Shown one piece after another: positions 38,061-61,465 of a stretch of 64,000 nucleotides of DNA. A program made the translations under genes and the position numbers. The notes under the pieces were generated by a model, which had not been told where the DNA came from, did no database searches, and worked only from the letters and a program-made list of their open reading frames with translations. This stretch comes from Spirochaetia bacterium (lineage in GTDB: Bacteria; Spirochaetota; Spirochaetia; SZUA-6; Bin103), in contig CBDAOI010000004.1 in NCBI GenBank assembly GCA_965198005.1, positions 320,001 through 384,000 of the forward strand, written 5' to 3'. Each line of letters opens with the position of its first letter. Position 1 is the first letter of the stretch.

Positions 38061-38516
38061 GACGCGCCAGGATGGCGTAAGCGTAGTGACCGGTGGCCGG
38101 TGATGTTCGGTGACGTGCGAGTCGTTGACAGGCTGGTCGCGTCCATAGCAAGCTTGCCTCGCCTCGGCTTCGACGGATCGATGATGACGCGCCATGACGA
38201 CAGTCAGCGCAGTGACCGGTTGGCGGTGACGTTCGGTGACCGCCGAGTCGTTGACAGGCGCGCCGCGCCTATGCTAGCGTGCCTCGCTTGGGGCGACGGA
38301 TGCCGATGAAGCGCCATGATGACAGTCAGCGCAGTGACGGGTTGCCGGTGACCTTCGCTCACCCCGGTGACCCCCACGAGTCGTTGACGGCGCGCCGCGC
38401 CTATGCTAGCGTGCCTCACTTGGGGTTCGACGGATGGTCATGAAGGGTCACGATGACAGGCAGCGCAGTGACCGGTTAGTTGTGACGCAGCCAGTGCATC
38501 CTGCTACCCCCCCCCC
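38061..38516 (+). repeat. leader repeat array (3 full units plus a partial) ending in TA(C)10
   Basis: TTGAC at 38125, 38251, 38384 (periods 126, 133). Confidence 0.9.
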
Positions 38517-38728
38517 ATTACGCACCGAGAAACAACTAACCGCCCCGGCTGATCGCTCCGTACGCGACCCCGCGCACGCCGTCGCCTTCACCACCGCCGT
38601 AGCTGTCGGTGGTGCCGGCTCGGTCCATCGCCGAACCGGCATGCGGACCGCCCGCGCCCTTCCCGCCGACCGCAACGGTGCCGGATCCCCGCCTGCGACT
38701 AACTGCGAGGGCACCCTGTGCCCCAAGA

Positions 38729-40352
38729 GTCGGACTACCGCACCGGGCTCCTGCCTCAGGTATGACGCCAAGGCGGTACAAGGGATAGGGATGGCACACT
38801 CGGGGCGGTGGCAACCAGTGGTCGAGCAGACGGCTCATCCGCTCCCAGGTAAGCCGGGTTTTCTGACTGCGCCGCCGCATCGACCGATACCAGAGCCGAC
38901 CAACCCGGAGGCGGAACAGGCGGAGTGCGCGGGAGTTCGTGGGTACCCCGTAGTAGCGCAGGTGCCCACCCACAACCGAGCGCAGCCAGCTTCCCACCTC
39001 CGGGACCGGATCGTGCAGGCGCCGCCGAAGCTCGGCATCCGAGCGGTGTCGGAATCCGACGACGATGTCATCCGCGTAGCGCACGACGATCACCTCGCCA
39101 CGCGCCTGCGTCTGCCGCCAGCGCCGGACCCACAGGTCGAACACGTAGTGCAGGTAGATGTTGGCAAGAAGCGGCGAAGCGCTGCCTCCCTGCGGCGTCC
39201 CCTGTTCGCTGCGTGTCCGCGTCCCACCGTGGTCGATGGCATCGAAGAACCCACGGATGTCCATGTCGAGCACCCAGTTCACCTTCCGTGTCAGCAGGCC
39301 CACATAGAGTGCGTCCAACGCATTGTGTTGGCTGCGCCCCGGGCGGAACCCGTAACTGAACCCGAGAAAATCGGTCTCGTAGATGGCGTTCAGCACCTCG
39401 ACCGTCGCACGCTGGACGATCTTGTCTTCCAGCGCCGTCACGCCGAGCGGTCGTTGCCGCCCGTCGGTCTTGGGGACGAACACCCTCCGCACCGGCTTCG
39501 CCCGGTACGCTCCTCGCTGCAGCCGTCCACAGAGGTCCAGGAGGTTGCCCTCCAGGTCCCCTCCGTACTGCCGCCACGTCACCCGGTCCACCCCCGGCGC
39601 GGCTTCCCGCTTGAGGCTGAAGTACGCCTCCCGGAGGATCGCGGGGTTGTCGACGTGGTGCATGAGCGCGGTGAACCGCAGCGTCCTATCCCGTCGCGCT
39701 GCTTGACGTATCCGCTCCAGCGCACTGAGCGCGCCCTCCCGGCGCAGTGTCCGGGGCGCGTTTTGCTGGCGCGGATTCCCTTTGGCCAGGCCCCTTTCCT
39801 CCACCCGCTCCGCGGCCCGGTTGCTGCCGGCCGGCGTGACCGTAGGTTCTCCCTTGGCTGTATCCGGCGTTTCCGCCTGCGTGCCCGTGTAGGGTTCACC
39901 ATAGCCGCGCCGCCTGAGGCAGCTCCCGTCCTTGTTCGCGGGCTTCTCAGGTACTACGGGCCTGTCCGACTTCCCAGCTCCGTTCATCGTCGGCGTCCGT
40001 CCTTGGACTTCCCGACACGGCCTGCGGCGCCATCCGCCACAGGCGAAGCTGGGATCTCCCGGCTCCCGCGCAAGGTGTTTCCGTACGTGCCCGGGGTCTG
40101 TGACCGCGCAGGGTCCCGTGGCGCCTCGCGATATCGGCGCCCCGGGTGTGGCCTTCCGCCTCCTCCTAAGGCGTCGGCACCCCGAAGTAATCTCGTTTCG
40201 CGGCTCGATACCCGGCCCGCACGTACCCCTGTCAACGCTTCACCCCCGCCCTCGCGAGCGGCGGCGCATGACTCGGGGCCGTCGTGGGTCGCTAGCCCTT
40301 CGACGTATGACTCTCTCATTCACAACAACCTTGCCGGTTTTTGCCGGCGCAC
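38729..40352 (-). mobile_element. group II intron 2 (class E-like) with internally deleted RT and damaged domain V/VI
   Basis: Starts GTGCGCC (40352), ends GAC (38729); boundaries fixed by the empty site at 53581-53600; RT motifs PQGGSASP, YADD. Confidence 0.9.
38750..39987 (-). pseudogene. ltrA: intron-encoded reverse transcriptase/maturase with two internal deletions
   Basis: AAPGVD, RPLGV, SYGFRP, DIRGFFD then a jump to GTPQG; YADD then a jump to domain X. Confidence 0.85.
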
Positions 40353-40363
40353 AGGAGGTGAAG

Positions 40364-40399
40364 ATGATACTGAAAGAACCGCACGCGCGCGCGGTGTGA
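40364..40399 (+). CDS. putative 11-aa leader peptide MILKEPHARAV
   Basis: SD AGGAGGTGA; four homologous copies in the window. Confidence 0.55.
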   Translation: MILKEPHARAV

Positions 40400-40485
40400 G
40401 CCGGGGTGAACTACGGGCCTGGTTCCCGCTCCCCCTGTGAGTCACCCGCCGCGCGCTTTTCGTGTATTGGACTCAGACTGGCAGA

Positions 40486-40543
40486 GCCCGCGTTGCGGGC
40501 GCGAGAGTAGCCAGGGAGCGCAAGTCGCTCCGCAATACTCTCG
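40486..40543 (+). ncRNA. candidate cis-regulatory two-hairpin RNA motif (copy 1)
   Basis: GCCCGC-GTT-GCGGGC plus CGAGAGTA...GGAGCG/CGCTCC...TACTCTCG just before the SBP3 start. Confidence 0.6.
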
Positions 40544-40567
40544 AAAAATCCACATAGGGAGAAACCT

Positions 40568-42364
40568 ATGAACATTGCAATAATTAGAATGACCTTCGCG
40601 ATTGCGTTGGTCCTGATTCTGAGCGCAACCGGCCTGTGGGCCGCCGGCTCAGAAGAGGAGCCGGCAGCCGCTGCCGACAAGAAGTATGTGACCGACCCCA
40701 CCACCGGCAAAGCGGTGAGCGCGCCAGAGTATGGCGGGACATTGACCTGGGCTGGTGCTTACAATCCTTCGACTACTGATTCCTGGAACTATGGCGGGAC
40801 TGTCGCCACCGCCGGCGTTCTACAGATGCTAGCAATGGCGGACTGGGGAGTGGACAGGAGTGTCTTTAACCTCAAGACCATGTACGTACCTATGTCTCAC
40901 ATGAAAGGGGTGCTGGCGGAAAGCTGGGAGCAGCCCGACGACACAACGATAATCTTCCACATCCGGAAGGGCGTTCACTGGCACAATAAGCCACCGGTGA
41001 ACGGTCGGGAGCTAACTGCCGATGATGTCGTATATAACTGGCACCGTCTATTGGGACTGGGCAAGTTCAGTGAAGCCGGACCTACCCCAGCACATAGATT
41101 CGTAGCGAGATTCGAATCGGTAACGGCCACCGACGATTGGACGGTTGTTTTTAAGCTCGAGAAGCCATCCCTCGCTGGAATGTTTGATATCCTCCTCAAC
41201 TCCCGTGCTGCTATAAACTCCCCCGAGGTAATCGAGGAACACGGTGATGTTGCGGACTGGAGGAACCTGGTCGGCACCGGGCCCTTTATGCTGACTGACT
41301 GGACCGAGGACGTCTCTCTGACCTGGACCAAGAATCCTGACTACTGGGGCTTTGACGAAAAATACCCGGAGAACCGCCTGCCCTATGTTGACGAGACCAT
41401 AGCTCTGATCATGAAAGATGAGGCAACACGAATAGCGGCACTGCGCACGGGTGTGGTCGATGCCCTGGAAAATGCTGGCTCTGCTCAAATAAAATCTATC
41501 GACGCGGCGGAGAGGCTCAAGGAGACCAACCCCGAACTCGTGTTCTGGCCTTTTTCGATTCGGTCGGAGACGTCTGGTGCCTATAACACTACGAAGCCGC
41601 TCTTTGACGACATCAGGGTGCGCCACGCGATGCAGATGGCACTAGACCTCGAGACGATTAACAATACCTACTATAAGGGTTACGCAGATTGGATACCTCA
41701 GGGGATTGTAGGGACAGGCCTTACGGAGTATTTCGTCCCATTTGAAGAGTGGCCTGAAGAGGTCAAGCAATACTATATCTATGACCCGGAAGGGGCAGAA
41801 GCGTTGCTTGATGAGGCTGGATATCCGCGCGGCGCCGACGGCATTAGATTCAAGACCACATTCGAATGCTCGGAAACTCTTGATGTAGGCGGTTTTGAAT
41901 TATTCGCTGGGTACTGGCGTGAGATTGGCGTTGATGTAGAGGTCATGCCACTCGAGAGCGCCACTCATGTGGCTAATATACAGACCCATGCTTATGAAGG
42001 TCTGGTCGGTGTACCGCAGGGCCTCGATTATACCGAACCCCTTGGGGTTTTCAAATCATTTCTTTACACGGATGCGCTATGGAACCAATCGGGGATTAGC
42101 ATCCCGGAACTGGACGCCATGATTGACGCCGCCGGAGCGACTCTGGACATGCAAGAGAAAATCAGGTTGTCTAAAGAGATCAATATGTACGCGTTAGAGA
42201 ACCACTGGTACTTGTGGGGTCCTAGAGTTCCAAACTTTCTGGTGTACCAGCCGTGGATTATAGGTTTCAACGGTGAATATGACTTGGGGGTTAATCAAAG
42301 ATTTGCTAACCTCTTCGCCCGTCTCTGGATTGATAGTGAGCTGAAGAAATCCATGGGTCATTAG
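40568..42364 (+). CDS. family 5 ABC substrate-binding protein (SBP3)
   Basis: Signal peptide LWAAG, PEYGG, LAESW, GTGPF, ARLWID. Confidence 0.93.
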   Translation: MNIAIIRMTFAIALVLILSATGLWAAGSEEEPAAAADKKYVTDPTTGKAVSAPEYGGTLTWAGAYNPSTTDSWNYGGTVATAGVLQMLAMADWGVDRSVFNLKTMYVPMSHMKGVLAESWEQPDDTTIIFHIRKGVHWHNKPPVNGRELTADDVVYNWHRLLGLGKFSEAGPTPAHRFVARFESVTATDDWTVVFKLEKPSLAGMFDILLNSRAAINSPEVIEEHGDVADWRNLVGTGPFMLTDWTEDVSLTWTKNPDYWGFDEKYPENRLPYVDETIALIMKDEATRIAALRTGVVDALENAGSAQIKSIDAAERLKETNPELVFWPFSIRSETSGAYNTTKPLFDDIRVRHAMQMALDLETINNTYYKGYADWIPQGIVGTGLTEYFVPFEEWPEEVKQYYIYDPEGAEALLDEAGYPRGADGIRFKTTFECSETLDVGGFELFAGYWREIGVDVEVMPLESATHVANIQTHAYEGLVGVPQGLDYTEPLGVFKSFLYTDALWNQSGISIPELDAMIDAAGATLDMQEKIRLSKEINMYALENHWYLWGPRVPNFLVYQPWIIGFNGEYDLGVNQRFANLFARLWIDSELKKSMGH

Positions 42365-42588
42365 TGTCTGGTCTCGGGGATAACTGAACCGTCTAAGGGA
42401 GCTGGGGGGCTCAGGCCTCCCGGCTCCGACACACATGTCATTGCGAGGCGCGCTTCCTCACTGTCATTCCGGCGGTCCGCCGAAGCGGCGGAGACCCGGA
42501 ATCCAGAAAACGCAACCATTTGAAATGGGAATGACGAAAGAGGGCTGGCAATGACGGGGGAAATCGCAATGACAAGGAGTAGTGTCAC

Positions 42589-43587
42589 ATGAGAGCCTAT
42601 ATCATCAGGCGGTTATTGCTGATAATCCCCACGCTGTTCATATTGACCATCCTGGTCTTTCTCTCGGTGCGCTTCATCCCCGGCGATGCAATAGACGCAA
42701 TGTTAGGCAGGCTGAGCTACGAGGCTGCCTTCCTTGACCGGGAAGCTCTTGTGCGTATACTGGGATTGGACGTGCCTGCCCACGTGCAGTATGGACGCTG
42801 GCTAGGAGTGTTGCCGACCCCTGACGTTTTTACCGGTGAGTCCCACTTTAAAGGTCTCCTCCAGGGCACCCTTGGCGAATCACTGATGGGCGGTTTTACA
42901 GTAGAGGAGAAGATAATAGCCAGACTGCCGGTAACCATCGAGCTTGGCGTCCTGGCAATCGTGATCGGGCTGATGATAGCCCTGCCGGTCGGCATCTACT
43001 CGGCGATTCGCCAAGATACAGCCGCCGACTACGTGGGGCGCAGCATCGCCATCATCGGCCTGGCAACGCCTAACTTCTGGCTGGCACTTATGGTCATGAT
43101 ATACCCGGCAATCTGGTGGGGCTGGGCGCCACCGATGAAGCTGATTCCTTTCACGGAAGACCCGCTGGGGAATCTCGGGCTGTTCATCATTCCCAGCCTA
43201 ATTCTGGGGACGGCTGCTTCTGCAGCCACCATGCGGATGGCGCGCACCATGATGCTGGAGGTGCTCAGGCAAGACTACATCAGGACTGCCTGGTCAAAGG
43301 GTCTCAACGAGAGGGTAGTTGTTATAAGACACGCCATCAAGAATGCCCTCATCCCGGTAGTTACCCTGGTAGGCCTGCAGTTGCCTATCCTGGTAGGTGG
43401 CTCAGTCATTATCGAGAGCATTTTTAACCTGCCGGGGGCGGGTCGCCTTATGTTAAGCGCACTCCAGGACAGAGACTACCCGGTGATCTCTGGAGTGAAC
43501 CTATTCTTCGCAACCGTGGTTATGGCGAACAATCTATTTATCGACCTGATTTATCCTTATTTGGATCCTCGGGTCCGCTATAGATAA
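42589..43587 (+). CDS. DppB-like ABC permease
   Basis: MRAYIIRR, EVLRQDYIRTA, LDPRVRY. Confidence 0.93.
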   Translation: MRAYIIRRLLLIIPTLFILTILVFLSVRFIPGDAIDAMLGRLSYEAAFLDREALVRILGLDVPAHVQYGRWLGVLPTPDVFTGESHFKGLLQGTLGESLMGGFTVEEKIIARLPVTIELGVLAIVIGLMIALPVGIYSAIRQDTAADYVGRSIAIIGLATPNFWLALMVMIYPAIWWGWAPPMKLIPFTEDPLGNLGLFIIPSLILGTAASAATMRMARTMMLEVLRQDYIRTAWSKGLNERVVVIRHAIKNALIPVVTLVGLQLPILVGGSVIIESIFNLPGAGRLMLSALQDRDYPVISGVNLFFATVVMANNLFIDLIYPYLDPRVRYR

Positions 43588-43605
43588 AGGGGAGAAATCA
43601 GCAAT

Positions 43606-46349: not shown

Positions 46350-47290
46350 CCTATGGTCGGTTACGAAGCCGGTCCAGCTGGCTTTTCACTGTACCGGTTC
46401 CTCACCGAGCTGAATGTGCAGTGCGCGGTGATCGCACCAGGGAGTCTGGTCAGGAGACCGGCGGATCGGGTGAAGACCGATCGACGCGACGCCCGGATGA
46501 TCGCTCATGGGCTGAGGAACGGTGACGTGGATCGTGTGGCCATCCCCACGCCCGAGAACGAGGCGACGCGGGACTTCTTGCGCGCCCGTGACGATCTGCG
46601 TGAAGAGCTCAAGCACTACAAGCAGAGACTCAATCAGCTGCTGCTTCGGCATGGGCTGCAGTACACCGACGGGAGTAAATGGACGCGCGGCCACCGCCAG
46701 TGGATCCAGAACCTGGAGTTCGCGGTCGATCGTCTCAAGCAGACCGCTGAGCTGTACTACTACCGGATCGTTGAGCTCGAGGAGAAGATCTTGCAGATGG
46801 ATCAAGAGATCCAGCAGATCGCGCAGAGCGAACCCTACGCTGAGCCTGTGGGACGGCTCCGCTGCTTCCGCGGCATCGATTGGCTGGTCAATGAGCGCCG
46901 GCGCGGTCAACCCGAGCAGTTCATCGCCTACGCCGATCGCGCCGCTCGCAGGCTCTCCAAGAAGTTCTTTCGTTTGGTGTTCCGCGGCAAGCGCAGCCAA
47001 GTCGCCGTTACCGCGGTCGCTCGTGAGCTGGCCGGATTCGTCTGGGGCGCCATGGTAGGTCAGACCGACGGGATCGAGGCGATCGACGCCGCTTGACCTC
47101 CGGCAACTCATCCCGCGTTCCGGGTACAGCGATGGGCAGAGAACGACAAACGCCGGTGGAGAACCCTCGAGGTAACTATGAGGTGCCACGGGTGGAGGTC
47201 ACCGAGCATCCGGCGTGATACGCGCGGGCTCGCCGCATGCGGTGTGGTGAGGCTCACCGCTTTCCAGACTGGCGCGCGCTCGAACCGTAT
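46350..47290 (+). mobile_element. IS110-family element, internally deleted transposase plus downstream non-coding end
   Basis: YEAGPAGF, VKTDRRDA, GI then a jump to VAVTAVARELAGFVW; GAGAACCCTCG non-coding tail. Confidence 0.8.
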
Positions 47291-47359
47291 GCACGCCAGC
47301 TGCCGAGCAAGTGGATTCTGGAATGCTGGGGCCGGATCGATGGGACGATGGGATCGGAG

Positions 47360-48052
47360 CTGTTGGCAGGATTGTCGCGCTCGCGAGAGAGTGCACCGTT
47401 CGGGGTTAGCAGAGTCGACGAGTATGAAGTGCCATGATGACAGTCAACGCAGTGGCCAGTGGGCAGTTGGCGGTCACGTTCGGTGATCCGACCTATCCGA
47501 CCTCCGAGTGGTTGACCGGGTGGTCGCGTCCATAGCAAGCTTGCCTCGCTTGGGGTCGGACGGATCGGAGATGAAGCGCCATGACTACGCGCCAGGATGG
47601 CGGCAGCGCAGTGGCCGGTGGCCGATGATGTTCGGTGACGTCCGAGTCGTTGACAGGGTGGCCGCGCCCACGCTATCATGTCTGGCTTGGGGCGACGGAT
47701 GCCGATGAAGCGCCATGATGACGCGCCAGGATGGCGGCAGCGCAGTGGCCGGTTGGCCGTGATGACCTCCGATGGGTTGACAGGGTGGGCCGCGGCCATG
47801 CAAGCTTGCCTCGCTTGGGGTCGGACGGAACGGTGATGACGCGTCATGACGACAGTCAGCGCAGTGGCCGGTTAGCGGTCACGTTCGGTGACCTCCGGGT
47901 CGTTGACAGGTTTCCGGCCGCATGCGACGGTTCACCGCTCCGGGTTGGATGGATGAGGCGCCAGGATGGCATGATGCGACATGACGCGCCAGGATGGCGT
48001 AAGCGCTGTAGCCGGTTGGCGGTGACGCGACCGGTGGATCATACCCCCCCCC
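47360..48052 (+). repeat. leader repeat array (~5 units) ending in TA(C)9
   Basis: TTGAC at 47512, 47650, 47777, 47903; TTGACA-N18-TATCAT at 47650. Confidence 0.9.
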
Positions 48053-48237
48053 TGTACCCAACTTTTCGAACCGAGCAACAACTAACCGCTCCGGCTGATC
48101 GCCCCGTACGCGCCTCCGCGCACCCCGTCCCCTTCACTACCGCCGCATCTGTCCGTGGCGCCGGCTCGGCCATCGCTGAGCCACACCCGAAACAGACAAC
48201 ATCCGTCTCGTGTAACTCACCAAAAGAGGAGGTCAAG

Positions 48238-48273
48238 ATGATACTCAAAGAGCCGCACGTGCGCGCGGCGTGA
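48238..48273 (+). CDS. putative leader peptide MILKEPHVRAA
   Basis: SD GAGGAGGT; two synonymous changes relative to the other copies. Confidence 0.55.
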   Translation: MILKEPHVRAA

Positions 48274-48334
48274 GCCCGGGTGAGCCCGGATGAGTCACAC
48301 GCCGCGCGCTTCAGCCATTTGACTCAAACTGGCC

Positions 48335-48393
48335 GTCTGCGTTGCGGGCGCGAGAGTAGCCAGGGAGCGGCAAGTCGCTCCGCAATACTCTCG
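48335..48393 (+). ncRNA. candidate cis-regulatory RNA motif (copy 2)
   Basis: GTCTGC-GTT-GCGGGC (G-U compatible) plus CGAGAGTA...TACTCTCG. Confidence 0.6.
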
Positions 48394-48416: not shown

Positions 48417-50213
48417 ATGAAGATATTTTTTGCAAGGACCTTCGCGATTGCGTTGGTCCTGATTCTGAGCGCGACCGGCCTGTGGGCCGCCGGCGCAGAT
48501 GAAGAGGGGTCGGCAGCGGCCGCCGACAAGAAGTATGTGACCGACCCCACCACGGGCAAGGTGGTGACCGCGCCAGAGTACGGCGGGACATTGACCCTCC
48601 CCTATGTCCTAGTAGGCGACACTACTGACCCCTTTGTTACTGGCCACTATGCGGGCTTCATCATAGACGGTGTTAATGAGCAACTCGCCTACGGGGACTG
48701 GGGAATAAATAGGCAAGAATTTGACTTTAGAAACCCTTACCTCCCTGTGTTTGCCTTCACAGGGGCTCTGGCTGAAAGCTGGGCAAGGCCTGACCCACTG
48801 ACTTATATCTTCCACATCCGCAAGGGCGTTCACTGGCACGATAAGGCACCGATGAACGGTAGGGAGCTAAATGCCAACGATGTCGTATATACCTATCAGC
48901 GTAATTTGGCTCTGGGTGACTTCACCAAACGTGCCGAGCAGCCTAGCCAGATTATCGACCTGCCATGGGAATCGATAGAGGCCACCGACAAATATACGGT
49001 TGTTATGAAGTTGACGAAGCCGTCCCTCGGTGCGCTGAGGAGTATCCTCGACGACCCGTTTTTTTCTTGGATATACCCCCCCGAGGTAATCGAGAAATAC
49101 GGCGACTATACGGATTGGAGGAACGTGGTGGGCACCGGACCCATGATGCTGACTGACTATGCCGAAGGCGTCTCCAAAACCTATACCAGGAATCCTGACT
49201 ACTGGGGCTACGACCCAAAATACCCGCAGAACCGACTGCCCTATATTGACCAGTTAAGGTCCCTGTATATGGCAGACGAAGCAACACGTATATCGGCGCT
49301 ACGCACGGGTAAGGTTGATATGCTACATCAAGCCGGCGCCGTTAACATAAGAGCCGTCGACGTGGTAAGGAGCCTCCGGAAGACCAACCCCGAAATCGAG
49401 GTGCACAGTTATTACTCGCGGGCGAGCGGGGTCTTTGGTCTGAACATGCACAAGCCGCCCTTTGACGACGTCAGGGTGCGCCACGCTATGCAGATGGCAC
49501 TGGACCTCGAGACGATTAACGATACCTACTTTGCCGGTTATGGAAGGTGGGAACCTATGGGGGGGATTGCCGTCAAGCCGTATGTCAACACATTTAAAGA
49601 CTTTCCCGAAGGGCTCAAGCAATACTACAGGTATGACCCGGAAGGTGCCGAGAAGCTGCTTGATGAGGCGGGATATCCGCGCGGCGCGGACGGCGTTCGA
49701 CTCAAGGTCAACTATGACCACCGCGACGTGGTAGATTTGGGCTATGCGGAAATAGCTGCCAGCTACTGGGCTGATATAGGTGTTGAGGTAACGACTAATA
49801 TTCTTGACACGGCGACTTGGGTCGCTAATAGAGGAGAACATAACTATGAGATGACCGTTGGTGACTCGGGCTTTTACCTGGCCCCTTCCATATGGGTTAA
49901 CCATTATCGCACGGACGTCCTATTTCTGCGCGAATACGTGGGCGGAGTCCAGACCCCTGAGCTGACCGCCGCCTATGATGCCTTTTTCGCCGCTACCACC
50001 GAGGAGGAGCGGGTGAGGGCATATAAAGAGTATGATATGCTCATTCTAAAGCAGCACAATCAGATATGGGGTCCTATGGCTCCAGGGTTTGAGGTGAACC
50101 AGCCGTGGGTCAAAGGTTTTAACGGTGAATTCTCGATAGGAAACATGCTGTATAATAGCGTCCTCGTCCGCCTTTGGATTGACCAGGATCTGAAGCGAGA
50201 AATGGGCTTCTGA
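48417..50213 (+). CDS. family 5 ABC substrate-binding protein (SBP4)
   Basis: Same motif set as SBP3. Confidence 0.93.
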   Translation: MKIFFARTFAIALVLILSATGLWAAGADEEGSAAAADKKYVTDPTTGKVVTAPEYGGTLTLPYVLVGDTTDPFVTGHYAGFIIDGVNEQLAYGDWGINRQEFDFRNPYLPVFAFTGALAESWARPDPLTYIFHIRKGVHWHDKAPMNGRELNANDVVYTYQRNLALGDFTKRAEQPSQIIDLPWESIEATDKYTVVMKLTKPSLGALRSILDDPFFSWIYPPEVIEKYGDYTDWRNVVGTGPMMLTDYAEGVSKTYTRNPDYWGYDPKYPQNRLPYIDQLRSLYMADEATRISALRTGKVDMLHQAGAVNIRAVDVVRSLRKTNPEIEVHSYYSRASGVFGLNMHKPPFDDVRVRHAMQMALDLETINDTYFAGYGRWEPMGGIAVKPYVNTFKDFPEGLKQYYRYDPEGAEKLLDEAGYPRGADGVRLKVNYDHRDVVDLGYAEIAASYWADIGVEVTTNILDTATWVANRGEHNYEMTVGDSGFYLAPSIWVNHYRTDVLFLREYVGGVQTPELTAAYDAFFAATTEEERVRAYKEYDMLILKQHNQIWGPMAPGFEVNQPWVKGFNGEFSIGNMLYNSVLVRLWIDQDLKREMGF

Positions 50214-51844: not shown

Positions 51845-52147
51845 CCCGGGGCGGTATGACGCCGGATGCATGTTGACCTCCACCCGTGGCTCCATCCGTG
51901 GCCCCACGGGTGGCATACAGCTCCCAGGCCGCGACAGGGACGTCGTGGGCTGGGAGCGGTTTTGCTGTTCCGGAGGCGCGCCCGGAACGCGTCCGACCAG
52001 GTCGACGGAGCGCCGGACTGGGTATGGGCGTGACCTGACCGGTCAGCCCGAAGCAGCGCCTGGCATCATTTTGTCGGCGCATCATCTTGCACCGCAGACC
52101 GAGTCGGCGGAGTGTACAGGTACCTCATCACACGACTGACGCGTCGT
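51845..52147 (+). repeat. dispersed repeat family B (copy 2)
   Basis: Inverted homology to 59085-59375. Confidence 0.8.
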
Positions 52148-52153
52148 GATGGC

Positions 52154-52774
52154 CTACCGCACTGCAAGGGTGCGGAGAATGTCCTTCATGAGCAGCAGCA
52201 GGTGTAGCTCATCTGTCGGCGAGGGCTCGAACTCCGGGATCAGATGCCGGTAGAAGTCGCTGGCCTCAGAGGTCTCGGCATGGACCAAGAGCCCCCGACA
52301 GCCGATCTCGGTGCCAAGGGCGGCGGTGCGCTTGATTACGTCTTTCAGCATCCCTGCACCCAAACCACGCCGTTCGTGTTGGATACTGACGCCAAGTCGC
52401 GCCAGCAGAGCAACCGGCTGCGGATAACGTCCAGCTCCCTTCCTCAGCCGCTGCGGGGCGGCCTCCACAGCGATGCTTGCCATGCACCATGCGGTAGCGA
52501 AGGGTGAGGCACGCTTCATCAGCTTGCGGAGTCCGGGCAGGTCCCGGGCTTGGCGCTTGTTGATGGCCTCCCAGACCTTGGCAACTTTGGGGGACATGAT
52601 GAACTCGGTGCGATCCGCGAGCACGCGGCGCGCGGCGGTTGTGACGCTGCTCACGACGAACGCAGTGAGATCAGTTCCCACCGCAGCCACGGCTCGGTCG
52701 ATGAGAGCGCGATCCTCTGGCGTTGTCCTGACTTCCAAACGCTCGCTGCAGCGACGGCTCGTGACTGTCAGCAT
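52154..52774 (-). pseudogene. DUF1778 antitoxin fused in frame to an N-terminally deleted GNAT toxin (TacA/TacT-like)
   Basis: ERLEVRTT...LADRTEF...SPF joined to AWCMASI, LLARLGV..HERRGLG, FY. Confidence 0.8.
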
Positions 52775-52800
52775 GTACGGCCAATGTACGTCCTGAGGCG

Positions 52801-53212
52801 TTGACAGGATGGCCGCGTCCATAGCAAGCTTGCCTCGCCTCGGCTTCGACGGATCGATGATGACGCGCCATGACGACAGTCAGCGCAGTGACCGGTTGGC
52901 GGTGACGTTCGGTGACCGCCGAGTCGTTGACAGGCGCGCCGCGCATATGCTAGCGTGCCTCGCCTGGGGCGACGGATGCCGATGAAGCGCCATGATGACA
53001 GTCAGCGCAGTGACGGGTTGCCGGTGACCTTCGCTCACCCCGGTGACCCCCACGAGTCGTTGACGGCGCGCCGCGCCTATGCTAGCGTGCCTCACTTGGG
53101 GTTCGACGGATCGGTGATGAACTGCCATGATGACGCGTCAGGATGGCGTAAGCGCAGTGACCGGTTAGTTGTGACGCAGCCAGTGCATCCTGCTACCCCC
53201 CCCCCCCCCCCC
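52801..53212 (+). repeat. leader repeat array (3 units) ending in TA(C)17
   Basis: TTGAC at 52801, 52927, 53060 (periods 126, 133); near-identical to 38125-38516. Confidence 0.9.
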
Positions 53213-53603
53213 ACTTTTTCGAACCGAGAAACAACTAACCGCTCCGGTTGATCGCCGCGTACGCGACCCCGCGCACGCGGGCGCCTTCACCACCGCCGTA
53301 GCTATAGCTATCGGTTGCGCCGGCTCGGTCCATCGCCAAACCGGCATGCGGACCGGCCACGCCCTTCCCGGCGATCGCAACCGTCCCGGATCCCCGCCCG
53401 CGACTGACTGCCGGCAAAACCCACCGCCGGCGTCGCCAGCCATTCAGACTCGCTGCTTCGCCGACTACGACCCCGCGTGGCGTTGTGACGCAGGTCCCGA
53501 CGTCCGCCGAGCGGTGGGCGTTTGCATGATGGGGCGCGCACGCGGATCCCATGTTACGTCAGCCATCTGGCAGGGCACCATGTGCCCCAAGAAGGAGGTG
53601 AAG

Positions 53604-53639
53604 ATGATACTGAAAGAACCGCACGCGCGCGCGGCGTGA
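53604..53639 (+). CDS. putative leader peptide MILKEPHARAA (intron-free site)
   Basis: Perfect SD AAGGAGGTGA. Confidence 0.55.
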   Translation: MILKEPHARAA

Positions 53640-53716
53640 GCCCGGGTGAACCCGGTGAGTCACACGCCGCGCGCATCACAAATTGACTCAGACTGGCCGT
53701 CCGCGTTGGCGGGCGC

Positions 53717-53775
53717 GCCCGCGTTGCGGGCGTCAGAGTAGCCAGGGAGCGGCAATCCGCTCCGCAATACTCTCG
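53717..53775 (+). ncRNA. candidate cis-regulatory RNA motif (copy 3)
   Basis: GCCCGC-GTT-GCGGGC plus AGAGTA...GGAGCGG/CCGCTCC...TACTCT. Confidence 0.6.
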
Positions 53776-53798: not shown

Positions 53799-55598
53799 AT
53801 GAAGATATTTTTTGCAAGGACCTTCGCGGTTGCGTTGGTCCTAGTTCTGACCGCAACCGGCCTGTGGGCCGGCGGTGGCACAGAAGACGCACCGGCAACC
53901 GCTGCCGACAAGAAGTATGTGACCGACCCCTCCACCGGCAAGGTGGTGGTGGCGCCACAGTACGGCGGGACATTGACCTTTGCCTGGGCGATCGAGCTAG
54001 CACATGCTGACTGCTATTTCTCCCATGTCCCATGTCTGGCCGTCGGTGGCGTTAATGAGAAGCTAGGAATCATGAACTGGGCAATAGATAGGGATGAATT
54101 TTCCTTTGGAAGCACGTACGACCCTCCATTTACCCTAATACCGCACCTGGCGGAAAGCTGGGATATTTCCCCGGACGGCCTCACCTATACCTTCAACATC
54201 CGTAAGGGCGTTAACTGGCACAATAAGCCACCGATGAACGGTCGGGAGTTTACTGCCGAGGACTTCGTATTTAACTGGCATCGTTATGTGGGTCTGGGCA
54301 GCGGCTACACCGAACCTGCTGCCTATTACGCCTCGGCTCCGCCCGTTGTTCTGCCATACGAATCGGTAACGGCCACCGATAAATATACGGTTGTCGTTAA
54401 GCTGACGGAGCCAGCCCCCAAGGCGCTGGATACTATCCTCGACGGCAACGTCTTTTTTCTATACCCCCCCGAGGTAATCAAGGAACACGGGGACGTTAGG
54501 GATTGGAGGAACCTGGTCGGTACCGGGCCCTATATGCTGACTGACTGGGTGGAGGGCAGCTCTATCACCTATAACAAGAATCCTGACTACTGGAAAAACG
54601 ACGAGAAGTACCCGGAGAATCGTCTGCCCTACATTGACGAGTTGCAGCTCTTTTTCATCAAAGAGGAAGCAACACGTCTGGCGGGACTGCGCGCCGGTAG
54701 GATTGATTTACTGGGTTTCCCTACTGATATCACGTCGGTCGACGAGGTTGATAGCCTCCGGAAGACCAACCCTGAAATCGTGCTGCTCCCGTGGTGGGAC
54801 CGTTCGGAAACGTCTTATGGCATTGACGCAAGCAAGCCGCCCTTTGACGACATCAATGTGCGCAAGGCAATGCAGATGGCATTGGACCTCGAGGGCATTG
54901 ACCGCAGCTTCTACAAGGGCGCCGCATTGTGGCAGCCTCAGGGTATGGTAGGGGAAGCTATCAGCGCGTACCACACCCCATTTGAAGAGTGGCCCGAAGA
55001 GGTCAAGAAGGGCTATATGTACGATCCCGCAGGGGCGGAAGCTTTGCTGGATGAGGCCGGATATCCGCGCGGCGCGGACGGCACTCGATTCAAGACCGTG
55101 TTGAACCATTTCTATCGGTTTGATTTAGGCTATAGTGAATTAGCTGCCACCTACTGGGCGGATATTGGCGTTGATGTGGAGATAAACGTATTGGATGAGG
55201 CTAGTGCTCCCGCTGTTCGAACGGAACGTACTTGGGAAGGTCTGATATCTCACGCTCTGGGCAACAATACTGAGCCAGTGGGGGCTATACGCCGCAATGC
55301 ACACTCGACCGGCGACGATAACTTACACCGAGTCGGGTACCCTGAGTTGGACGCCCTTGTTGAAGCCGCCGAAGCCACTACCTCCATCGAAGAGCAGACG
55401 AGGCTGGTTAAAGAGATAGATATGTACATGATGGAGAACCACTGGTGGGTATGGGGTCCTAAAACTGGAAAGTACATGGCGCACCAGCCGTGGGTCATAG
55501 GTTTTAACGGTGAAGTTTGGCTTACAGTACTGGGCCGAATGGAAGTCTTCGCCCGCCTCTGGATTGATAGTGAGCTAAAGGAGGCAATGGGTCGTTAG
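53799..55598 (+). CDS. family 5 ABC substrate-binding protein (SBP5)
   Basis: Same motif set as SBP3. Confidence 0.93.
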   Translation: MKIFFARTFAVALVLVLTATGLWAGGGTEDAPATAADKKYVTDPSTGKVVVAPQYGGTLTFAWAIELAHADCYFSHVPCLAVGGVNEKLGIMNWAIDRDEFSFGSTYDPPFTLIPHLAESWDISPDGLTYTFNIRKGVNWHNKPPMNGREFTAEDFVFNWHRYVGLGSGYTEPAAYYASAPPVVLPYESVTATDKYTVVVKLTEPAPKALDTILDGNVFFLYPPEVIKEHGDVRDWRNLVGTGPYMLTDWVEGSSITYNKNPDYWKNDEKYPENRLPYIDELQLFFIKEEATRLAGLRAGRIDLLGFPTDITSVDEVDSLRKTNPEIVLLPWWDRSETSYGIDASKPPFDDINVRKAMQMALDLEGIDRSFYKGAALWQPQGMVGEAISAYHTPFEEWPEEVKKGYMYDPAGAEALLDEAGYPRGADGTRFKTVLNHFYRFDLGYSELAATYWADIGVDVEINVLDEASAPAVRTERTWEGLISHALGNNTEPVGAIRRNAHSTGDDNLHRVGYPELDALVEAAEATTSIEEQTRLVKEIDMYMMENHWWVWGPKTGKYMAHQPWVIGFNGEVWLTVLGRMEVFARLWIDSELKEAMGR

Positions 55599-55960: not shown

Positions 55961-56527
55961 ATGAGAGCCTATATCATGAGGCGGTTATTGCTGGTAATTC
56001 CCACCCTGTTTATATTGAGTATCATAGTCTTTCTTTCGGTCCGCTTCATCCCGGGGGATGTGATCGACGTAATGGTGGGAAGGATGAAAGGCTACCTTGT
56101 CGGGGGCGATATTGACCGTGAAGCTGTTGAGCGTATGCTGGGATTAGATGTGCCTGTGTACGTGCAGTATGGACGCTGGATAGGGGATATTTTCCTTCGC
56201 GGCACCCTTGGCGAATCACTGCTTGGCTATTGGTCGGTAGAGGAGAGGATACTAGGTAGATTGCCGGTAACCATTGAGCTCGGTGTCCTGGCAATCATCA
56301 TCGGGCTGGTGATCGCGCTGCCGGTGGGCATCTACTCGGCGATTCGCCAGGATACCGCCGTCGACTACGTGGGGCGCTCCATCGCCATCATCGGCCTGGC
56401 AACCCCTAACTTCTGGCTGGCAATTATGGTCATGCTCTACCCGTCAATCTGGTGGGGCTGGGCGCCACAGATGACGCTGATTCCCTTCGCCGAAGACCCG
56501 TTGGGCAATCTCGGGACGGCATGGTAA
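55961..56527 (+). pseudogene. DppB-like permease, 3'-truncated at a junction near 56515
   Basis: MRAYIMRR...DPLGNLG, then runs into the opposite-strand LLM gene. Confidence 0.85.
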
Positions 56528-57242
56528 TGGTCTTGGCGATCTCAGCCGGGTCGCGACCCGCCTTCTCGCAGTGGCGATCGAGCACACCAACCTTGTGACG
56601 ATAGATCTCCATCGACATCCCCTGGCCGGCCCAGCCATCCAGGTTCATCATGTCGCCGTGCAGGGCCAGCGTCTTGAGCGTGCGCTTCTCGCCGGTGCCT
56701 CCCACCAGGATCGGGATGTGCGGTTTCTGGTAGCACCCCGGCGACAGCGGCGCGTCGGCCAGCTGATAGTAGGTGCCCTTGTAGTCGACCGGCCCGTCGG
56801 CGGTAAACAACATGCGGATCAGCTCACACGCTTCCTGGAAGCGGTCTGAGCGTTCGCGCATCGTCGGGAACTCCCAGCCATAAGCTTCGTGCTCGCGCTC
56901 GCACCACGCCGCGCCGAGCGACAGGATGAAGCGGCCCTTGGATGCCTGGTCGAGCGTCGTCGCCATCTTGGCCAGCAGCGCCGGGTTGCGATAGGTGTTG
57001 CCGAGCACCAGGTGGCCCATGCGCAGCCGCTGCGTCATGCCGGCGGCCACCGCGATGAGCGTGTAGCCCTCGAAGGCGGTCTTGTGCTGGTTGGGGCGAT
57101 CGCCCTTCGGCCCGCCCCACGGCGGCATAAAGTGGTCGGCAAACCACACACTATCCCAACTGCCGGCCTCCATCGTTTCGATGGAGGTGCGGATCTGATC
57201 CCACGTAACGTCGTAGCAATTCACTTGTACGCCAAATTTCAT
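56515..57242 (-). pseudogene. LLM-class (F420-dependent-like) oxidoreductase, 3'-truncated
   Basis: SVWFADHF, NTYRNPALLAKMATTLD, PILVGG.GEK.TL. Confidence 0.85.
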
Positions 57243-57437
57243 ATGCGGCGCACGCTATCGTGCCTGGCAGCTTTGCGCAAACTGCGGTGCGTGCGGGCGT
57301 GCGCGGCGTTGGATGCCCTCCAGGCAGCGGGAGCGTTGCTGCCCGGCCCGCTCGAGCGTCCGGTCTTTGGCGGGTCCCGGTCTTTCTGGGGGCCAAACGG
57401 GCGTGCGCGCCGATCAAGAGTGGGCGCGCGCGCCGGC

Positions 57438-57930
57438 TTACGGGACCAGACGTCGTCGTCTCCTCGCCGTCGAGCAACGTCCGCCGGCTAATTCTTGGCC
57501 AGGCGTCTGCCACTCACCGCCCACCGCGACATCGGGATACAGCCCGCTGAGCGCATCGCGCATCTGCTGCGCGGTGAGCTCCCCGGACTCGTCAGTGGCG
57601 CCGAGGATACAGCGGGATCCATTCTTGGCGACGCTGCTGGTGGCCATCAGGCGCTGCGCCTGGCCGATGTCGCGCACGTCGATGACGCTCCACAGAAAGC
57701 CGGGCGCCGCGCCCTCCAGATCCGGGATCGCCTGCCCGAAGGCCAGGCCGGTCCAGCTACCCGAAGCGTCTTGCCCGCTCTGCCCCGACAGCGCCCGGCC
57801 GATCCTCTTCTGCCACACGGCGTCCACCTTGCCCTTGGCATAGGGTGTCTTCTCGACGTTCCACAGCTGCTCGTCGGTGTCGTGGCCACCCCAGTCCTCC
57901 TCGCTAAACTCGTGGCCGCTGGGGTCGGCA
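57438..57930 (-). pseudogene. extended SDR (NAD-dependent epimerase-like) fragment
   Basis: FSEEDW, PYAKGK (YxxxK), VIDVRDIGQA; N-terminus missing. Confidence 0.6.
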
Positions 57931-58025
57931 CCACCGCGCCACCCGCCCGACCAGTGGCCGATTCAGAACGTGTCCCAAGGCCCCTTGTCGTGACGTGGGC
58001 CGTCGCGCGTAGTCCGTCTTGCGCG

Positions 58026-58373
58026 TCAGGTGTTCAGGAAGTTCCGCTCGGAATACGCCTGTGCTGTCGGTGCCGCCTCTCGCAGTACCACCACTTCCTT
58101 ACTGAGGCGTCCCTTCAGTCGTGCTTTCTCGACCTCGAGCACGTAGCGCGTTTGCAGGTTGAGCCAGAAGCGCTCGGTCGTGCCGAAGTAGCGCGCAAGC
58201 CGGAGCGCTGTATCGGCCGTGATCGCCCGCTTGCCATGCACGATCTCGTTGATCCGCCGAGGGGGAACGCTGATGTCCTTCGCAAGCCGATACTGGCTGA
58301 GTTCCATCGGCTCCAGAAACTCCTGTAGCAGGATCTCGCCAGGGTGAATCGGGGGGTGGGCCTTCCTTGCCAT
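58026..58373 (-). CDS. higA: HigA antitoxin
   Basis: PIHPGEIL, SQYRLA, RINEIVHGKRAITADTALRL, FWLNLQ. Confidence 0.92.
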   Translation of the reverse strand: MARKAHPPIHPGEILLQEFLEPMELSQYRLAKDISVPPRRINEIVHGKRAITADTALRLARYFGTTERFWLNLQTRYVLEVEKARLKGRLSKEVVVLREAAPTAQAYSERNFLNT

Positions 58374-58383
58374 GTCTCGCTCC

Positions 58384-58665
58384 TTAATGATAGTCCGTGA
58401 TCTCCACATCGAAGGCGTCGCCCCGGTTCCACCGGAAGCAGATCCGCCACTGATCGTTGATGCGGATGCTGTATTGCCCGACCCGATCTCCTGAGAGCCG
58501 TTCCAAGCGATTCCCGGGGGGTATCCGCAACTCTTCCAATACATCTGCCGCGTCCAGGACCAGAAGTTTCCTGTGCGCTCGGCGCTGCAGATCGGGCGGA
58601 AGCCGCCGCGACGGATCTCGCCGGAACACCTTCTCGGTTTCCGCGTCGCGGAAGCTTCGGATCAC
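58384..58665 (-). CDS. higB: HigB (RelE/ParE) toxin
   Basis: [33 protein letters not shown]. Confidence 0.92.
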
Positions 58666-59084
58666 TCACGAATAGTAACGTAGCTTGTTATTATTGTCGA
58701 GCGTTATCGGCGTACCCGGCGGCCTCTAACTCTCGGAGGTCGGTGGTCGATCGAGAACATTCCCAAGTGCTGCGTTGAGCCGACGGGCTGACGGCCGCGA
58801 AGTTTCCTGGTCGCGCCACTTATGCAACGGTTCGAGATTCCTCACCAGCGTCCACCGTCGTAGTAAACTAACGAGTATCCCGCTGGGACGGACCTGGCTG
58901 ATGTGTTACTCAGAGAGTGCCGGACAGGCGGCATCGACGACAGCTGACCGGTTCGGTCAGCGGGTTCCATGACTCGGCGCTGGTGAGCGTGATGGTGCAC
59001 GTGACTCCGGACGCGCCCAATCGCCCGCGCCCTCCATGGCGCGGGAACGCCTGTGTTGGGCCCCATGGACGGGGCCCACGAACG

Positions 59085-59420
59085 GACGACACGTCAGTCG
59101 TGTGAAGAGTCACTTCGCCGACTCGGTCTGCGGTGCAAGATGATGCGCCGACAAAATGATGCCAGGCGCTGCTTCGAGCTGACCGGCCAAGTCACGCCCA
59201 TCCACAGCCCGGCGCTCGTTGACCTGGTCGGGCGCGTTCCGGGCGCGCCTCCGGAGCAGCCAACGGGCTCCCAGCCCACGACGTCCCTGTCGCGGGCCGG
59301 GAGCTACATGCCACCCGTGGGGCCATGGAGGGTGCCTCGGGTGGAGGTCACCGTTCACCCGGTGTGATACCGCGGGACGTGCCGGTCTCCGGCGCGAACT
59401 TCGTTCGCGCACAGCCACGG
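59085..59420 (-). repeat. dispersed repeat family B (copy 3)
   Basis: Inverted homology to 51845-52147; includes GCGCGAACTTCGTTCGCGC. Confidence 0.8.
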
Positions 59421-59449
59421 GTCCACGGGTCCACGGGATCCACGGGTCG

Positions 59450-60075
59450 GCGCTGTTGACAGGGTGGCCGCGCTCGCGAGAGAGTGCACCGTTAGGAGTT
59501 CGGCGAATGCGGATGATGCGCCACGACGACCGCCAGCGCAGTGAAGGGCTGAGGTGCGCAAGTTCAGCCGATCACAGAGCCGGGCGTGGCAAGGTGCACC
59601 ATGCCAGAATCGCTGTTGACTTTTTCTGACATTCGGGTTGATCAGCGCAGTGGCCGGTCGGCGGTCACGGTCGGTGACCTCGGTGACCTCCGAGTCGTTG
59701 ACAGGGTGGTCGCGTCCATAGCAAGCTTGCCTCGCTTGGGGTTCGACGGATCGATGATGACGCGCCATGACGACAGTCAGCGCAGTGACCGGTTGGCGGT
59801 GACGTTCGGTGACCGCCGAGTCGTTGACAGTGCGCCGCGCCTATGCTAGCGTGCCTCGCTTGGGGCGACGGATGCCGATGAAGCGCCATGATGACAGTCA
59901 GCGCAGTGACGGGTTGCCGGTGACCTTCGCTCACCCCGGTGACCCCCACGAGTCGTTGACGGCGCGCCGCGCCTATGCTAGCGTGCCTCACTTGGGGTTC
60001 GACGGATGCCGATGAAGCGCCATGATAACAGTCAGCGCAGTAGCCGGTTGGCGGTGACGCAGCCGATGTACCCCC
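59450..60075 (+). repeat. leader repeat array (4-5 units) ending in TA(C)5
   Basis: TTGAC at 59456, 59616, 59698, 59824, 59956. Confidence 0.9.
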
Positions 60076-60278
60076 TAACCGCTCGGGCTGATCGCCCCGT
60101 ACGCGACCCCGCGCACACCGTCGCCTTCACCACCGCCGTAGCTATCGGTGGCGCCCGCTCGGTCCATCGCCGAACCGGCATGCTGGCCGCCCGCGTCCTT
60201 CCAGGCGACCGCAACCGTCCCGGATCCCCGCCCGCGACTAACTGCGCGCAAAACCCACCGCCTGCGTTGGCGGCCATT

Positions 60279-61124
60279 CAGGAGGTTGCCCTCCAGGTCC
60301 CTGCCGTACTGGCGCTTCCGCCACGTCACCCGGTCCACCCCCGGCGCGGCTTCCCGCTTGAGGCTGAAGTACGCCTCCCGGAGCATCGCGGGGTTGTCGA
60401 CGTGGTGCATGAGCGCGGTGAACCGCAGCGTCCTATCCCGTCGCGCTGCTTGACGTATCCGCTCCAGCGCACTGTGCACGCCATATTGCCGGCGCGGTGT
60501 CCGGGGCGCGTTTTGCTGGCGCGGATTCCCTTTGGCCAGGCCCCTTTCCTCCGCCCGCTCCGCGGCCCGAGGACTACCGGCCGGCGTGGCCGTAGGTGCT
60601 CCCTTGGCTGTGTCCGGCGTTTCCGCCTGCGTGCCCGTGTAGGGTTCACCATAGCCGCGCCGCCTGCGGCAGCTCCCGTCCTTGTTCGCGGGTTTCCCAG
60701 GTACCCCGCAGGGCGGCCGCCAGGCCGGGGGCCTGTCCGACTTCCCAGCTCCGTTCATCGTCGGCGTACGTCCTTGGACTTCCCGACACGGCCTGCGGCG
60801 CCATCCGCCACAGGCGAAGCTGGGATCTCCCGGCTCCCGCGCAAGGTGTTTCCGTACGTGCCCGGGGTCTGTGACCGCGCAGGGTCCCGTGGCGCCTCGC
60901 GATATCGGCGCCCCGAGTGTGGCCTTCCGCGTCCTCCTACAGCGTCGGCACCCCGAAGTAATCTCCTTTCGCGGCTCGATACCCGGCCCGCACGTACCCC
61001 TGTCAACGCTTCACCCCCGCCCTCGCGGGCGACGGCGCATGACTCGGGGCCGCCGTGGGTCGCTAACCCTTCGACGTATGACTCTTTCATTCACAACAAC
61101 CTTGCCGGTTTTTTGCCGGCGCAC
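60279..61124 (-). mobile_element. group II intron 3 (sister of intron 2), 3' part deleted
   Basis: GTGCGCC start at 61124 abutting AGGAGGTG; highly similar to 39538-40352. Confidence 0.9.
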
Positions 61125-61135
61125 AGGAGGTGAAG

Positions 61136-61171
61136 ATGATACTGAAAGAACCGCACGCGCGCGCGGCGTGA
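61136..61171 (+). CDS. putative leader peptide MILKEPHARAA
   Basis: SD AGGAGGTGA; fourth copy. Confidence 0.55.
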   Translation: MILKEPHARAA

Positions 61172-61251
61172 GCCCGGGTGAACCCGGATGAGTCACACGC
61201 CGCGCGCTTCCGAGAACTTGACTCAGACTGGCAGCCCGCTCTGGCGGGCGC

Positions 61252-61440
61252 GCCCGCGTTGCGGGCCCGAGAGTAGCCAGGGAGCGACAACGCGCCCCGC
61301 AATACTCTCGAGATAACATTCAAGGAAGAAACGATGAAGATACTGCGATTTAGGGTTCGAGGTTGTCGCCCCTGTTTCGTCGCCTGCATTGCAGGCGTGA
61401 GAGTAGGCAGGGAGCGGCAAATCGCTAAGCAATACTCTCA
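61252..61440 (+). ncRNA. candidate cis-regulatory RNA motif, tandem copies 4 (61252-61310) and 5 (61381-61440)
   Basis: Copy 5 shows compensatory changes CGCCTGC-ATT-GCAGGCG and TGAGAGTA/TACTCTCA. Confidence 0.65.
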
Positions 61441-61465
61441 AAATGAGCAATAAGGAGAAAAAAGA

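Follow-up and report, generated by a model that had tools for sequence, protein, structure and literature searches.

A shared leader with a variable poly-C tract probably switches a large family of transporter operons in a spirochaete

We analysed a stretch of 64,000 nucleotides from the genome of a Spirochaetia bacterium (the window, C4:320001-384000, in whose numbering positions are given; source genome 4.89 Mb, 66% GC) that carries six genes for solute-binding proteins (SBPs), labelled SBP1 to SBP6. A common leader precedes four of them, SBP3 to SBP6, with its blocks always in the order promoter-type units, run of C, spacer, Shine-Dalgarno sequence (SD) with a mini open reading frame (mini-ORF), stem, hairpins and SBP start. 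Judged by its sequence, this leader probably switches each of about 80 transporter operons on and off at random. The best model, which we consider moderately probable, is repeat-driven phase variation by translation-coupled attenuation, probably dependent on Rho. One to seven tandem sigma-70 promoters would start the transcript, and ribosomes entering at an ATG in the last unit would cross the slippage-prone poly-C tract and the C-rich spacer to the mini-ORF, stopping in the 5' arm of a strong stem. At the one tract length in three that keeps the frame, they would cover the C-rich leader as far as the stem and the operon would be read. In the other two frames they would stop at most ~40 nt from the tract; some 350 nt of C-rich RNA would then lie bare, and transcription would end early, most likely by Rho. 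Each operon would be switched stochastically and independently of the others. Recombination or gene conversion among the copies would shuffle the promoters and leader alleles, together with the segment that encodes the signal peptide and reaches to a YGG motif. A group II intron would act as a parasite homing to the SD of the mini-ORF.

A leader tied to one gene family

SBP1-6 are family-5 solute-binding proteins (PF00496) with a mutual identity of 41-53%, and they belong to an expanded family: of the 213 SBP-like loci in the genome, 142 are near full length. A sequence-only reading of the window had proposed a dedicated multi-layer expression cassette for this family, of about 1 kb, non-coding, and better conserved than the genes behind it. 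The ordered architecture is indeed present at all four loci, and its conservation is confirmed: among SBP3-6 the spacer is 83-92% and the mini-ORF/RNA part 83-93% identical in nucleotides, versus 70-72% (50-53% in amino acids) for the bodies. The size of about 1 kb fits SBP4 and SBP5; the leaders of SBP3 (2.5 kb) and SBP6 (2.0 kb) are enlarged by an antisense group II intron. Likewise, the proposed TA(C)n tract is found as C10, C9 and C17 at SBP3, SBP4 and SBP5, and SBP6 has only C5. The units also occur inverted before minus-strand SBP2 and as a single diverged unit (19644-19750) before SBP1, as had been noted. A profile search of the window did not find the spacer, mini-ORF and hairpin blocks at SBP1 or SBP2. 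The SBP1 leader (19644-20106, +) is of another type, with two C-runs and short ORFs and without the mini-ORF block; among the 69 full-length SBP loci lacking that block, 36 also carry a C-run of at least 9.

The position and orientation of the blocks are locked to SBP genes. Within the window, all matches to the profiles of five leader blocks lie before SBP1-6, and the cassette precedes no other gene. Genome-wide, 78/82 mini-ORF blocks and 75/76 hairpin blocks are found at most 400 nt upstream of an SBP locus on the same strand, and 52 of the 61 unit arrays at most 2.6 kb upstream of one. Among the nine other arrays and the two stray mini-ORF blocks that we inspected, most stand before a broken SBP or permease gene or are interrupted by insertion sequences; one of the nine arrays sits before an unrelated gene. 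The sub-blocks are thus nearly always upstream of same-strand SBP loci, rather than scattered in random orientation in the manner of miniature inverted-repeat transposable elements (MITEs). The cassette reading, further backed by the promoter-type units and by the coding selection on the mini-ORF, holds up. The mini-ORF block precedes only 73 of the 142 full-length SBP loci.

The leader is carried by 7/10 genomes of the same genus, four of which have 33-62 copies. Its copy number ranges from 33 to 83 across five genomes, and its distribution inside the genus is patchy. It was absent from all 13 sister-genus genomes searched. An assembly artefact is unlikely, because the leader recurs in these same-genus genomes and is covered by contigs from 4/4 sequencing runs. 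The runs containing the stretch include sponge metatranscriptomes, which points to a sponge-associated spirochaete. Records titled Dehalococcoidia, Aggregatilineales or "bacterium" (L013-L016 and L052) contain SBP bodies 85-94% identical in amino acids to those of this genome, mostly without the leader; either genes moving between sponge-type symbionts or misbinning could account for this. In the records that lack the leader, some of them titled Dehalococcoidia, body identity is 84-94%. Among 58 loci, we did not find the leader upstream of the SBP homologs from Dehalococcoidia or "bacterium" records, with two exceptions: a partial spacer in one Aggregatilineales record and a full copy on one short "bacterium" contig. 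The genome (G000) also has two pairs of whole leader-plus-SBP duplicates of 3.9-4.4 kb with more than 99.7% identity (C2:7726/C3:799084 and C1:4929/C4:1735504), either very recent duplications or assembly redundancy.

Tandem promoter-type units and a length-variable poly-C tract

The ~130-bp units start with TTGAC, which is followed, at a spacer of 16-18, by a hexamer with A at its second and T at its sixth position (nAnnnT). This combination occurs in 77 of 87 distinct TTGAC 30-mers from the arrays versus 1178/7006 genome-wide (16.8%), and the spacer lengths of the unit promoters peak at 17-18. By these motifs the units are tandem sigma-70 promoters that are presumably active. A stricter promoter scan recognised just one unit, because most -10 boxes are weak. 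The arrays comprise 1-7 units (up to 5 in relatives) and are mosaics of distinct alleles.

Downstream of the units lies the poly-C tract. The genome contains 95 runs of at least 10 C or G. Of these, 75 are poly-C on the sense strand and lie no more than 1.3 kb upstream of an SBP locus, a zone that makes up 2.8% of strand space. None of the SBP-upstream runs is poly-G, and the whole genome has a single A/T run of at least 10. The same 3' flank, identical in sequence, carries 7-20 C in different copies, and relatives have 7- or 8-mer repeats at the poly-C site. The consequence of such variation can be read from SBP5, where one C-length in three gives a frame of 170-174 codons ending at the mini-ORF stop in the stem arm, and the others give 37-45 codons. 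Tracts of C13, C16 and C19 are predicted to be read to the mini-ORF stop, over 172-174 codons; the C17 that is present is out of frame. SBP5 is accordingly predicted to be OFF and SBP4, in frame, to be ON, if the frame-keeping state is the ON state. SBP3 is predicted to be in frame through its intron, and SBP6 in frame with C5 only.

The leader keeps a reading frame

The leader had been taken to be non-coding. This view is wrong, as a long reading frame is kept through it. The reading frame through the C-run was overlooked, as were the intron that splits two of the four copies and the extension of the exchanged unit into the first ~57 codons of the gene. With relaxed spacer anchor patterns, used because stricter anchors missed some copies, the spacer is in frame with the mini-ORF in 29/43 copies of the genome and 21/28 in relatives, over many spacer lengths. 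The spacer frame stays open to at most 20 nt before the mini-ORF ATG, or beyond it, in 45/48 copies, compared with null expectations of 43-63% (random deletion) and 33% (in-frame). Over 79 copies, the median open length upstream of the mini-ORF is 115 codons; the two other frames give 36 and 33.

We rejected the idea that this frame encodes a functional protein. The three codon positions do not differ in their substitution types, and there is no preference for synonymous changes (73/157 vs 158/383 possible, p=0.29). Small indels in the first 200 nt are not clearly biased to multiples of three (12/29), and the spacer, with 44% C and 27% G, carries no amino-acid selection. Since the encoded sequence is unconstrained, it would be the passage of ribosomes across the leader that matters, and not the product. 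The rho gene of the genome scores over its cut-off.

The distal leader: a conserved short peptide and a folded RNA

The 113 copies of the mini-ORF start exclusively with ATG, GTG or TTG and have an SD 5-6 nt upstream, which is strong in at least 100 of them. In codons 3-6 (LKEP), we counted 66 synonymous and 3 non-synonymous variants, which shows coding selection at the level of the peptide. The mini-ORF ends either after codon 6 (18/113, with a stop at codon 7, nearly all after Glu-Pro) or in the 5' arm of a 12-bp stem.

The RNA block that begins there is well conserved as a fold: 93.6% of its cells are paired, 10 of 47 pairs are changed on both sides, and none of 500 shuffles reached as high. 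Two crossing helices form a candidate H-type pseudoknot (90% and 96% paired) but hardly covary: across 25 sequences, one has a single two-sided change and the other none. A second proposed pseudoknot was rejected, being conserved without compensatory change. Resemblances to T-box, SRP loop, ZTP, HDV-like, yybP-ykoY and CsrA-site motifs gained no support and were set aside. Searched against Rfam 15 at gathering thresholds, the leaders gave only intron matches and no riboswitch or cis-regulatory RNA. Up to an E of 10, the best hit was an osmY match (E 0.81, SBP5 leader), rejected as it spans only the region of the ribosome-binding site. A terminator scan of the window did not call the stem as a plus-strand terminator.

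Introns inserted against the mini-ORF ribosome-binding site

The leaders of SBP3 and SBP6 hold a group II intron on the minus strand, with matches to the ribozyme model RF02005 of 186 and 181 bits. In the SBP3 copy, the ribozyme match (40314-40094) is accompanied by a reverse transcriptase (RT) ORF (39987-38536) with an RVT_1 match; its TIGR04416 score of 220 bits is below the cut-off, as expected for a deleted copy. Ribozyme domains, an RT with YADD and a GUGYG 5' end identify the element as a group II intron. All recognisable 5' ends of this intron family follow CCTCCT, the complement of the mini-ORF SD, and an AGGAGG loop (40168-40162 in the SBP3 copy) is, by its position, the putative exon-binding site 1 (EBS1). 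Group IIC and IIC-attC introns also exploit repeated regulatory sites of their hosts; the intron here differs from them in its AGGAGG loop and its antisense placement at an SD. A second group II family (window ~16920-18340, +; ~20 genome copies) uses another repeat as target and appears to start with GAGCG rather than GTGCG.

Lying antisense, the intron cannot be spliced out of the SBP message. In one frame, the antisense strand of the intron (~1.9 kb) contains just one stop, which lies in domain VI. By comparison, the second intron family has 4-5 stops in its best frame, and 78/1042 control windows are fully open. In the SBP3 copy, part of domains V/VI is deleted, removing the sole antisense stop. 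We examined the 14 intron-bearing leaders with a spacer anchor, among at least 14 intron copies genome-wide. In all 12 decayed copies the frame continues as far as the mini-ORF; the two copies of the window belong to these, as do a few of a second, diverged intron type. The two intact ones stop in domain VI. Random deletions give read-through in 32-53% of trials, and the joint probability for 8 selected remnants is 2.7e-4, with copies that are not fully independent. This read-through is the best indirect evidence that translation of the leader is needed.

Leaders and gene bodies have separate histories

Two copies in the genome are 97.7% identical from -626 to +172, with bodies of 53% identity. 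Between genomes the reverse is seen: SBP bodies 97-99% identical have different leaders; turnover at orthologous genes is rapid. The YGG motif near codon 57 marks the point at which identity climbs to 92-100% in the 10 pairs inspected. For the pair analysis, items identical over 730 nt were collapsed first (9/220), which removes fully identical whole-operon duplicates; among the 31 remaining non-identical pairs with bodies at least 95% identical, the N-terminus reaches 95% in 2 and the leader in 3. Identity at fourfold sites is 0.77 in the signal-peptide region versus 0.49-0.68 in most well-populated body windows. By these comparisons the histories of leader and body are decoupled, the exchanged module includes the signal peptide, and the pattern is the signature of conversion or recombination among copies.

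Feature map and neighbouring elements

The features of the window are collected in Table 1. Several other elements lie near the leaders. Directly upstream of the SBP3 array is a gene for an XerC-like tyrosine recombinase with a frameshifted neighbour (35959-38151, -), a pair that we take to be possibly a recombinase-in-trio element. Fragments of a DDE transposase, 92-97% identical and oriented as the genes, are found upstream of SBP1 (18461-19295, +) and SBP2 (34436-35269, -). An inverted repeat of ~260 nt (87-93%), likely a small mobile element, lies upstream of the SBP5 and SBP6 arrays (51851-52114 and 59111-59373), with a partial copy near 47170. The SBP5 promoter array is abutted by a TacA-like antitoxin fused or frameshifted to GNAT-like sequence (52154-52822, -).

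Table 1. Leader blocks, introns and SBP genes of the window.
Feature	Position	Strand	Details
SBP1 diverged single unit with C-runs	19644..19861	+	C16 (19777-19792), C18 (19844-19861); SBP1 ATG 20107
SBP2 promoter units, two	34177..34395	-	before SBP2 (33911-32130)
SBP3 promoter array	38106..38487	+	three full units, -35 at 38125, 38251, 38384; partial unit from 38061
SBP3 leader ORF, 668 codons	38434..40440	+	last unit, C10, spacer, whole antisense intron; stop inside stem, 74 nt past mini-ORF ATG
SBP3 poly-C, C10	38507..38516	+	head in frame with spacer
SBP3 C-rich spacer blocks S/X	38518..38728	+	44% C, 25% G around anchor
SBP3 decayed group II intron	38729..40352	-	antisense, directly before SD
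SBP3 SD and mini-ORF MILKEPHARAV	40353..40399	+	ATG 40364
SBP3 structured RNA	40387..40542	+	12-bp GC stem, possible pseudoknot, two hairpins
SBP3 gene	40568..42364	+	family 5 solute-binding protein; codons 1-57 (to 40738, YGG) in exchanged 5' module
SBP4 promoter array	47354..48027	+	five unit matches; -35/-10 pairs 47512, 47650, 47777, 47903
SBP4 leader ORF	47953..48273	+	crosses C9 (48044-48052) and spacer and continues in frame into mini-ORF
SBP4 mini-ORF MILKEPHVRAA	48238-48273	+	end of SBP4 leader ORF
SBP4 structured RNA	48261..48392	+	before SBP4
SBP4 gene	48417..50213	+	PF00496
SBP5 promoter array	52793..53176	+	three units, -35 at 52801, 52927, 53060
SBP5 leader ORF	53117..53251	+	out of frame at C17 (53196-53212); stop after 44 codons
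SBP5 C-rich spacer S/X, full-length form	53216..53587	+	
SBP5 mini-ORF MILKEPHARAA and structured RNA	53604..53774	+	mini-ORF 53604-53639
SBP5 gene	53799..55598	+	
SBP6 promoter array	59451..60059	+	-35 at 59456, 59698, 59824, 59956
SBP6 leader ORF, 375 codons	60006..61133	+	spacer and intron remnant; stop inside mini-ORF SD; C5 only
SBP6 intron remnant (5', ~846 nt)	60279..61124	-	SBP3-type antisense group II intron
SBP6 mini-ORF, structured RNA, second copy of last hairpin	61136..61459	+	mini-ORF 61136-61171; hairpin copy 61394-61459
SBP6 gene	61466..63262	+	

Discussion

The elements of the proposed switch have precedents in other bacteria. In the pil1 leader of Streptococcus gallolyticus, as PMC3894217 describes it, a repeat in a leader ORF changes the frame and gives stochastic transcription attenuation. 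The SBP leader resembles it in that a repeat inside the leader ORF would set whether the ribosome reaches the stem or stops early. It differs from that account in having a homopolymer, about 80 paralogous transporter operons rather than one pilus locus, and a 350-nt C-rich spacer. Further differences are the mini-ORF at its end, which has an SD of its own, the weakness of the U-tail (so that Rho is proposed here instead of an intrinsic terminator), the stacked promoters and the exchange of modules. The likeness would lie in the working principle only: we claim no homology, and the stem is at most a candidate for a terminator of the pil1 kind. Rho is favoured as the likely terminator because the U-tail is weak, rho is present and the spacer is rich in C over G, the composition that Rut sites favour (PMC12360218). 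The same review describes tnaC, speFL, mgtL and cruR as cases of Rho-dependent attenuation controlled by an upstream ORF (uORF), where the ribosome on the leader ORF shields C-rich RNA. The SBP leader would share this shielding by ribosome occupancy; those four, as the review presents them, respond to a ligand (PMC12360218). In the phase-variation cases that we took from it, the event that precedes Rho action is DNA inversion (fim, flgB) or the binding of CsrA, and not repeat slippage in a leader ORF (PMC12360218). The tpr genes of Treponema pallidum offer the parallel of a spirochaete, a paralog family and a homopolymer upstream of the gene; their poly-G tract lies within the promoter and alters its activity, in the account of PMC7864442, whereas the tract here is ~100 nt or more downstream of the -10 box and inside a reading frame. 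The SBP leader may thus represent a new combination of a pil1-like principle, itself already known, with uORF control of the Rho type. The earlier statement that no described element has this layout stands for the literature searched (mostly open-access), in which we found no description of this leader, of the SBP expansion or of an SD-homing intron; its working principle has a precedent in pil1 (PMC3894217).

The switching model should be weighed against several observations that do not favour it. The head of the frame is in frame with the spacer in just 13/22 copies of the genome and 9/20 in relatives. Short and long tracts do contrast (10/11 vs 3/11, p=0.0075), with no clear repeat of this contrast in relatives, and errors in assembling long homopolymers may mimic OFF states. 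The leader copies are kin by descent and conversion, so that all p-values overstate the significance. A C-run of at least 9 is missing within 1.3 kb at 32 of the 73 full-length loci with the mini-ORF block, including SBP6. Having its own strong SD, the mini-ORF could load ribosomes without the long frame. In two copies from relatives (L008:1488-1670 and L056:2300-2485), the RNA block is kept without SD and ATG. The tail after the stem is weak, with at most 2 T in 8 nt in 64/113 copies and at least 4 T in 37/113. The spacer has enough GC to fold and is in this respect less than ideal as a Rut site. Finally, the sequencing runs were examined as contigs, which break at the tract, so that switching within a population and the termination step are what we infer from the leader itself. 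As an observation apart, the L008 and L056 copies suggest that the start sequence of the mini-ORF may also act as RNA.

Part of this evidence would suit an attenuator that senses a metabolite or the ribosome, with a tnaC-like mini-ORF or a riboswitch, where LKEP and the RNA would respond to a shared signal and govern all operons together. The long frame would then merely prevent polarity, and poly-C would be a mutable passenger or a rheostat for Rho loading. The selection on the LKEP codons fits this idea, as do the many copies without a long C-run, the paired RNA with its two-sided changes, and the copies that stop at codon 7. A Glu-Pro ending was stall-inducing in the E. coli constructs reported in PMC2481249. 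The idea leaves unexplained why 75 of 95 long C/G runs occur at one site, in a frame shifted by their length, and it lacks a matching Rfam family. We regard it as rather unlikely to be the main explanation; it is compatible with the switching model as an extra layer.

The decoupling of leaders and bodies and the mosaic arrays are also what recombination among 80-140 paralogs would be expected to produce. Ordinary concerted evolution could have copied a strong promoter and a long leader along with the expanding operons and homogenised them by conversion, without any switch. Tandem promoters, C-runs and intron remnants would be by-products, and the frame would be open only to avoid Rho polarity, in line with the missing amino-acid constraint. 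Yet a long slippery run in a frame that is needed would be costly unless switching were useful, and such runs are strongly enriched, always as sense-strand C, and replaced by other repeats in relatives. Hence, we consider this explanation unlikely. The high and patchy copy number in the genus and the rapid turnover at orthologous genes could finally suggest a selfish, MITE-like promoter element that inserts before SBP genes. We saw no terminal repeats or target duplications, and the orientation is fixed; there are almost no copies elsewhere, and the exchanged unit takes in the signal peptide and has its end within the gene, close to YGG. Position thus largely refutes a mobile element, which we deem very improbable.

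What is known of repeat-driven phase variation comes mainly from pathogen surface antigens, with few loci in each. Here, the leaders of a single transporter family hold some four in five of the long C/G homopolymers of a symbiont genome, a pattern that points to bet-hedging over nutrient uptake; at this scale, we found no description of it in the literature searched. The decayed antisense introns serve as a natural test that the leader must be translated from end to end. The sharp boundary of exchange suggests how large paralog families get rewired and how acquired genes are plugged into the expression of the host. One could go further and propose, tentatively and with some doubt, a plug-in system in which SBP bodies are fitted at YGG with interchangeable modules, as a contingency repertoire for feeding from ~100 uptake systems. 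Each module would bring its promoter dose, a stochastic translational switch that works by way of Rho, a mini-ORF and RNA for sensing, and an export signal, possibly with a dedicated mechanism of exchange at the junction. If this is true, the population would sample combinations of ~100 uptake systems, for feeding and not for immune escape.

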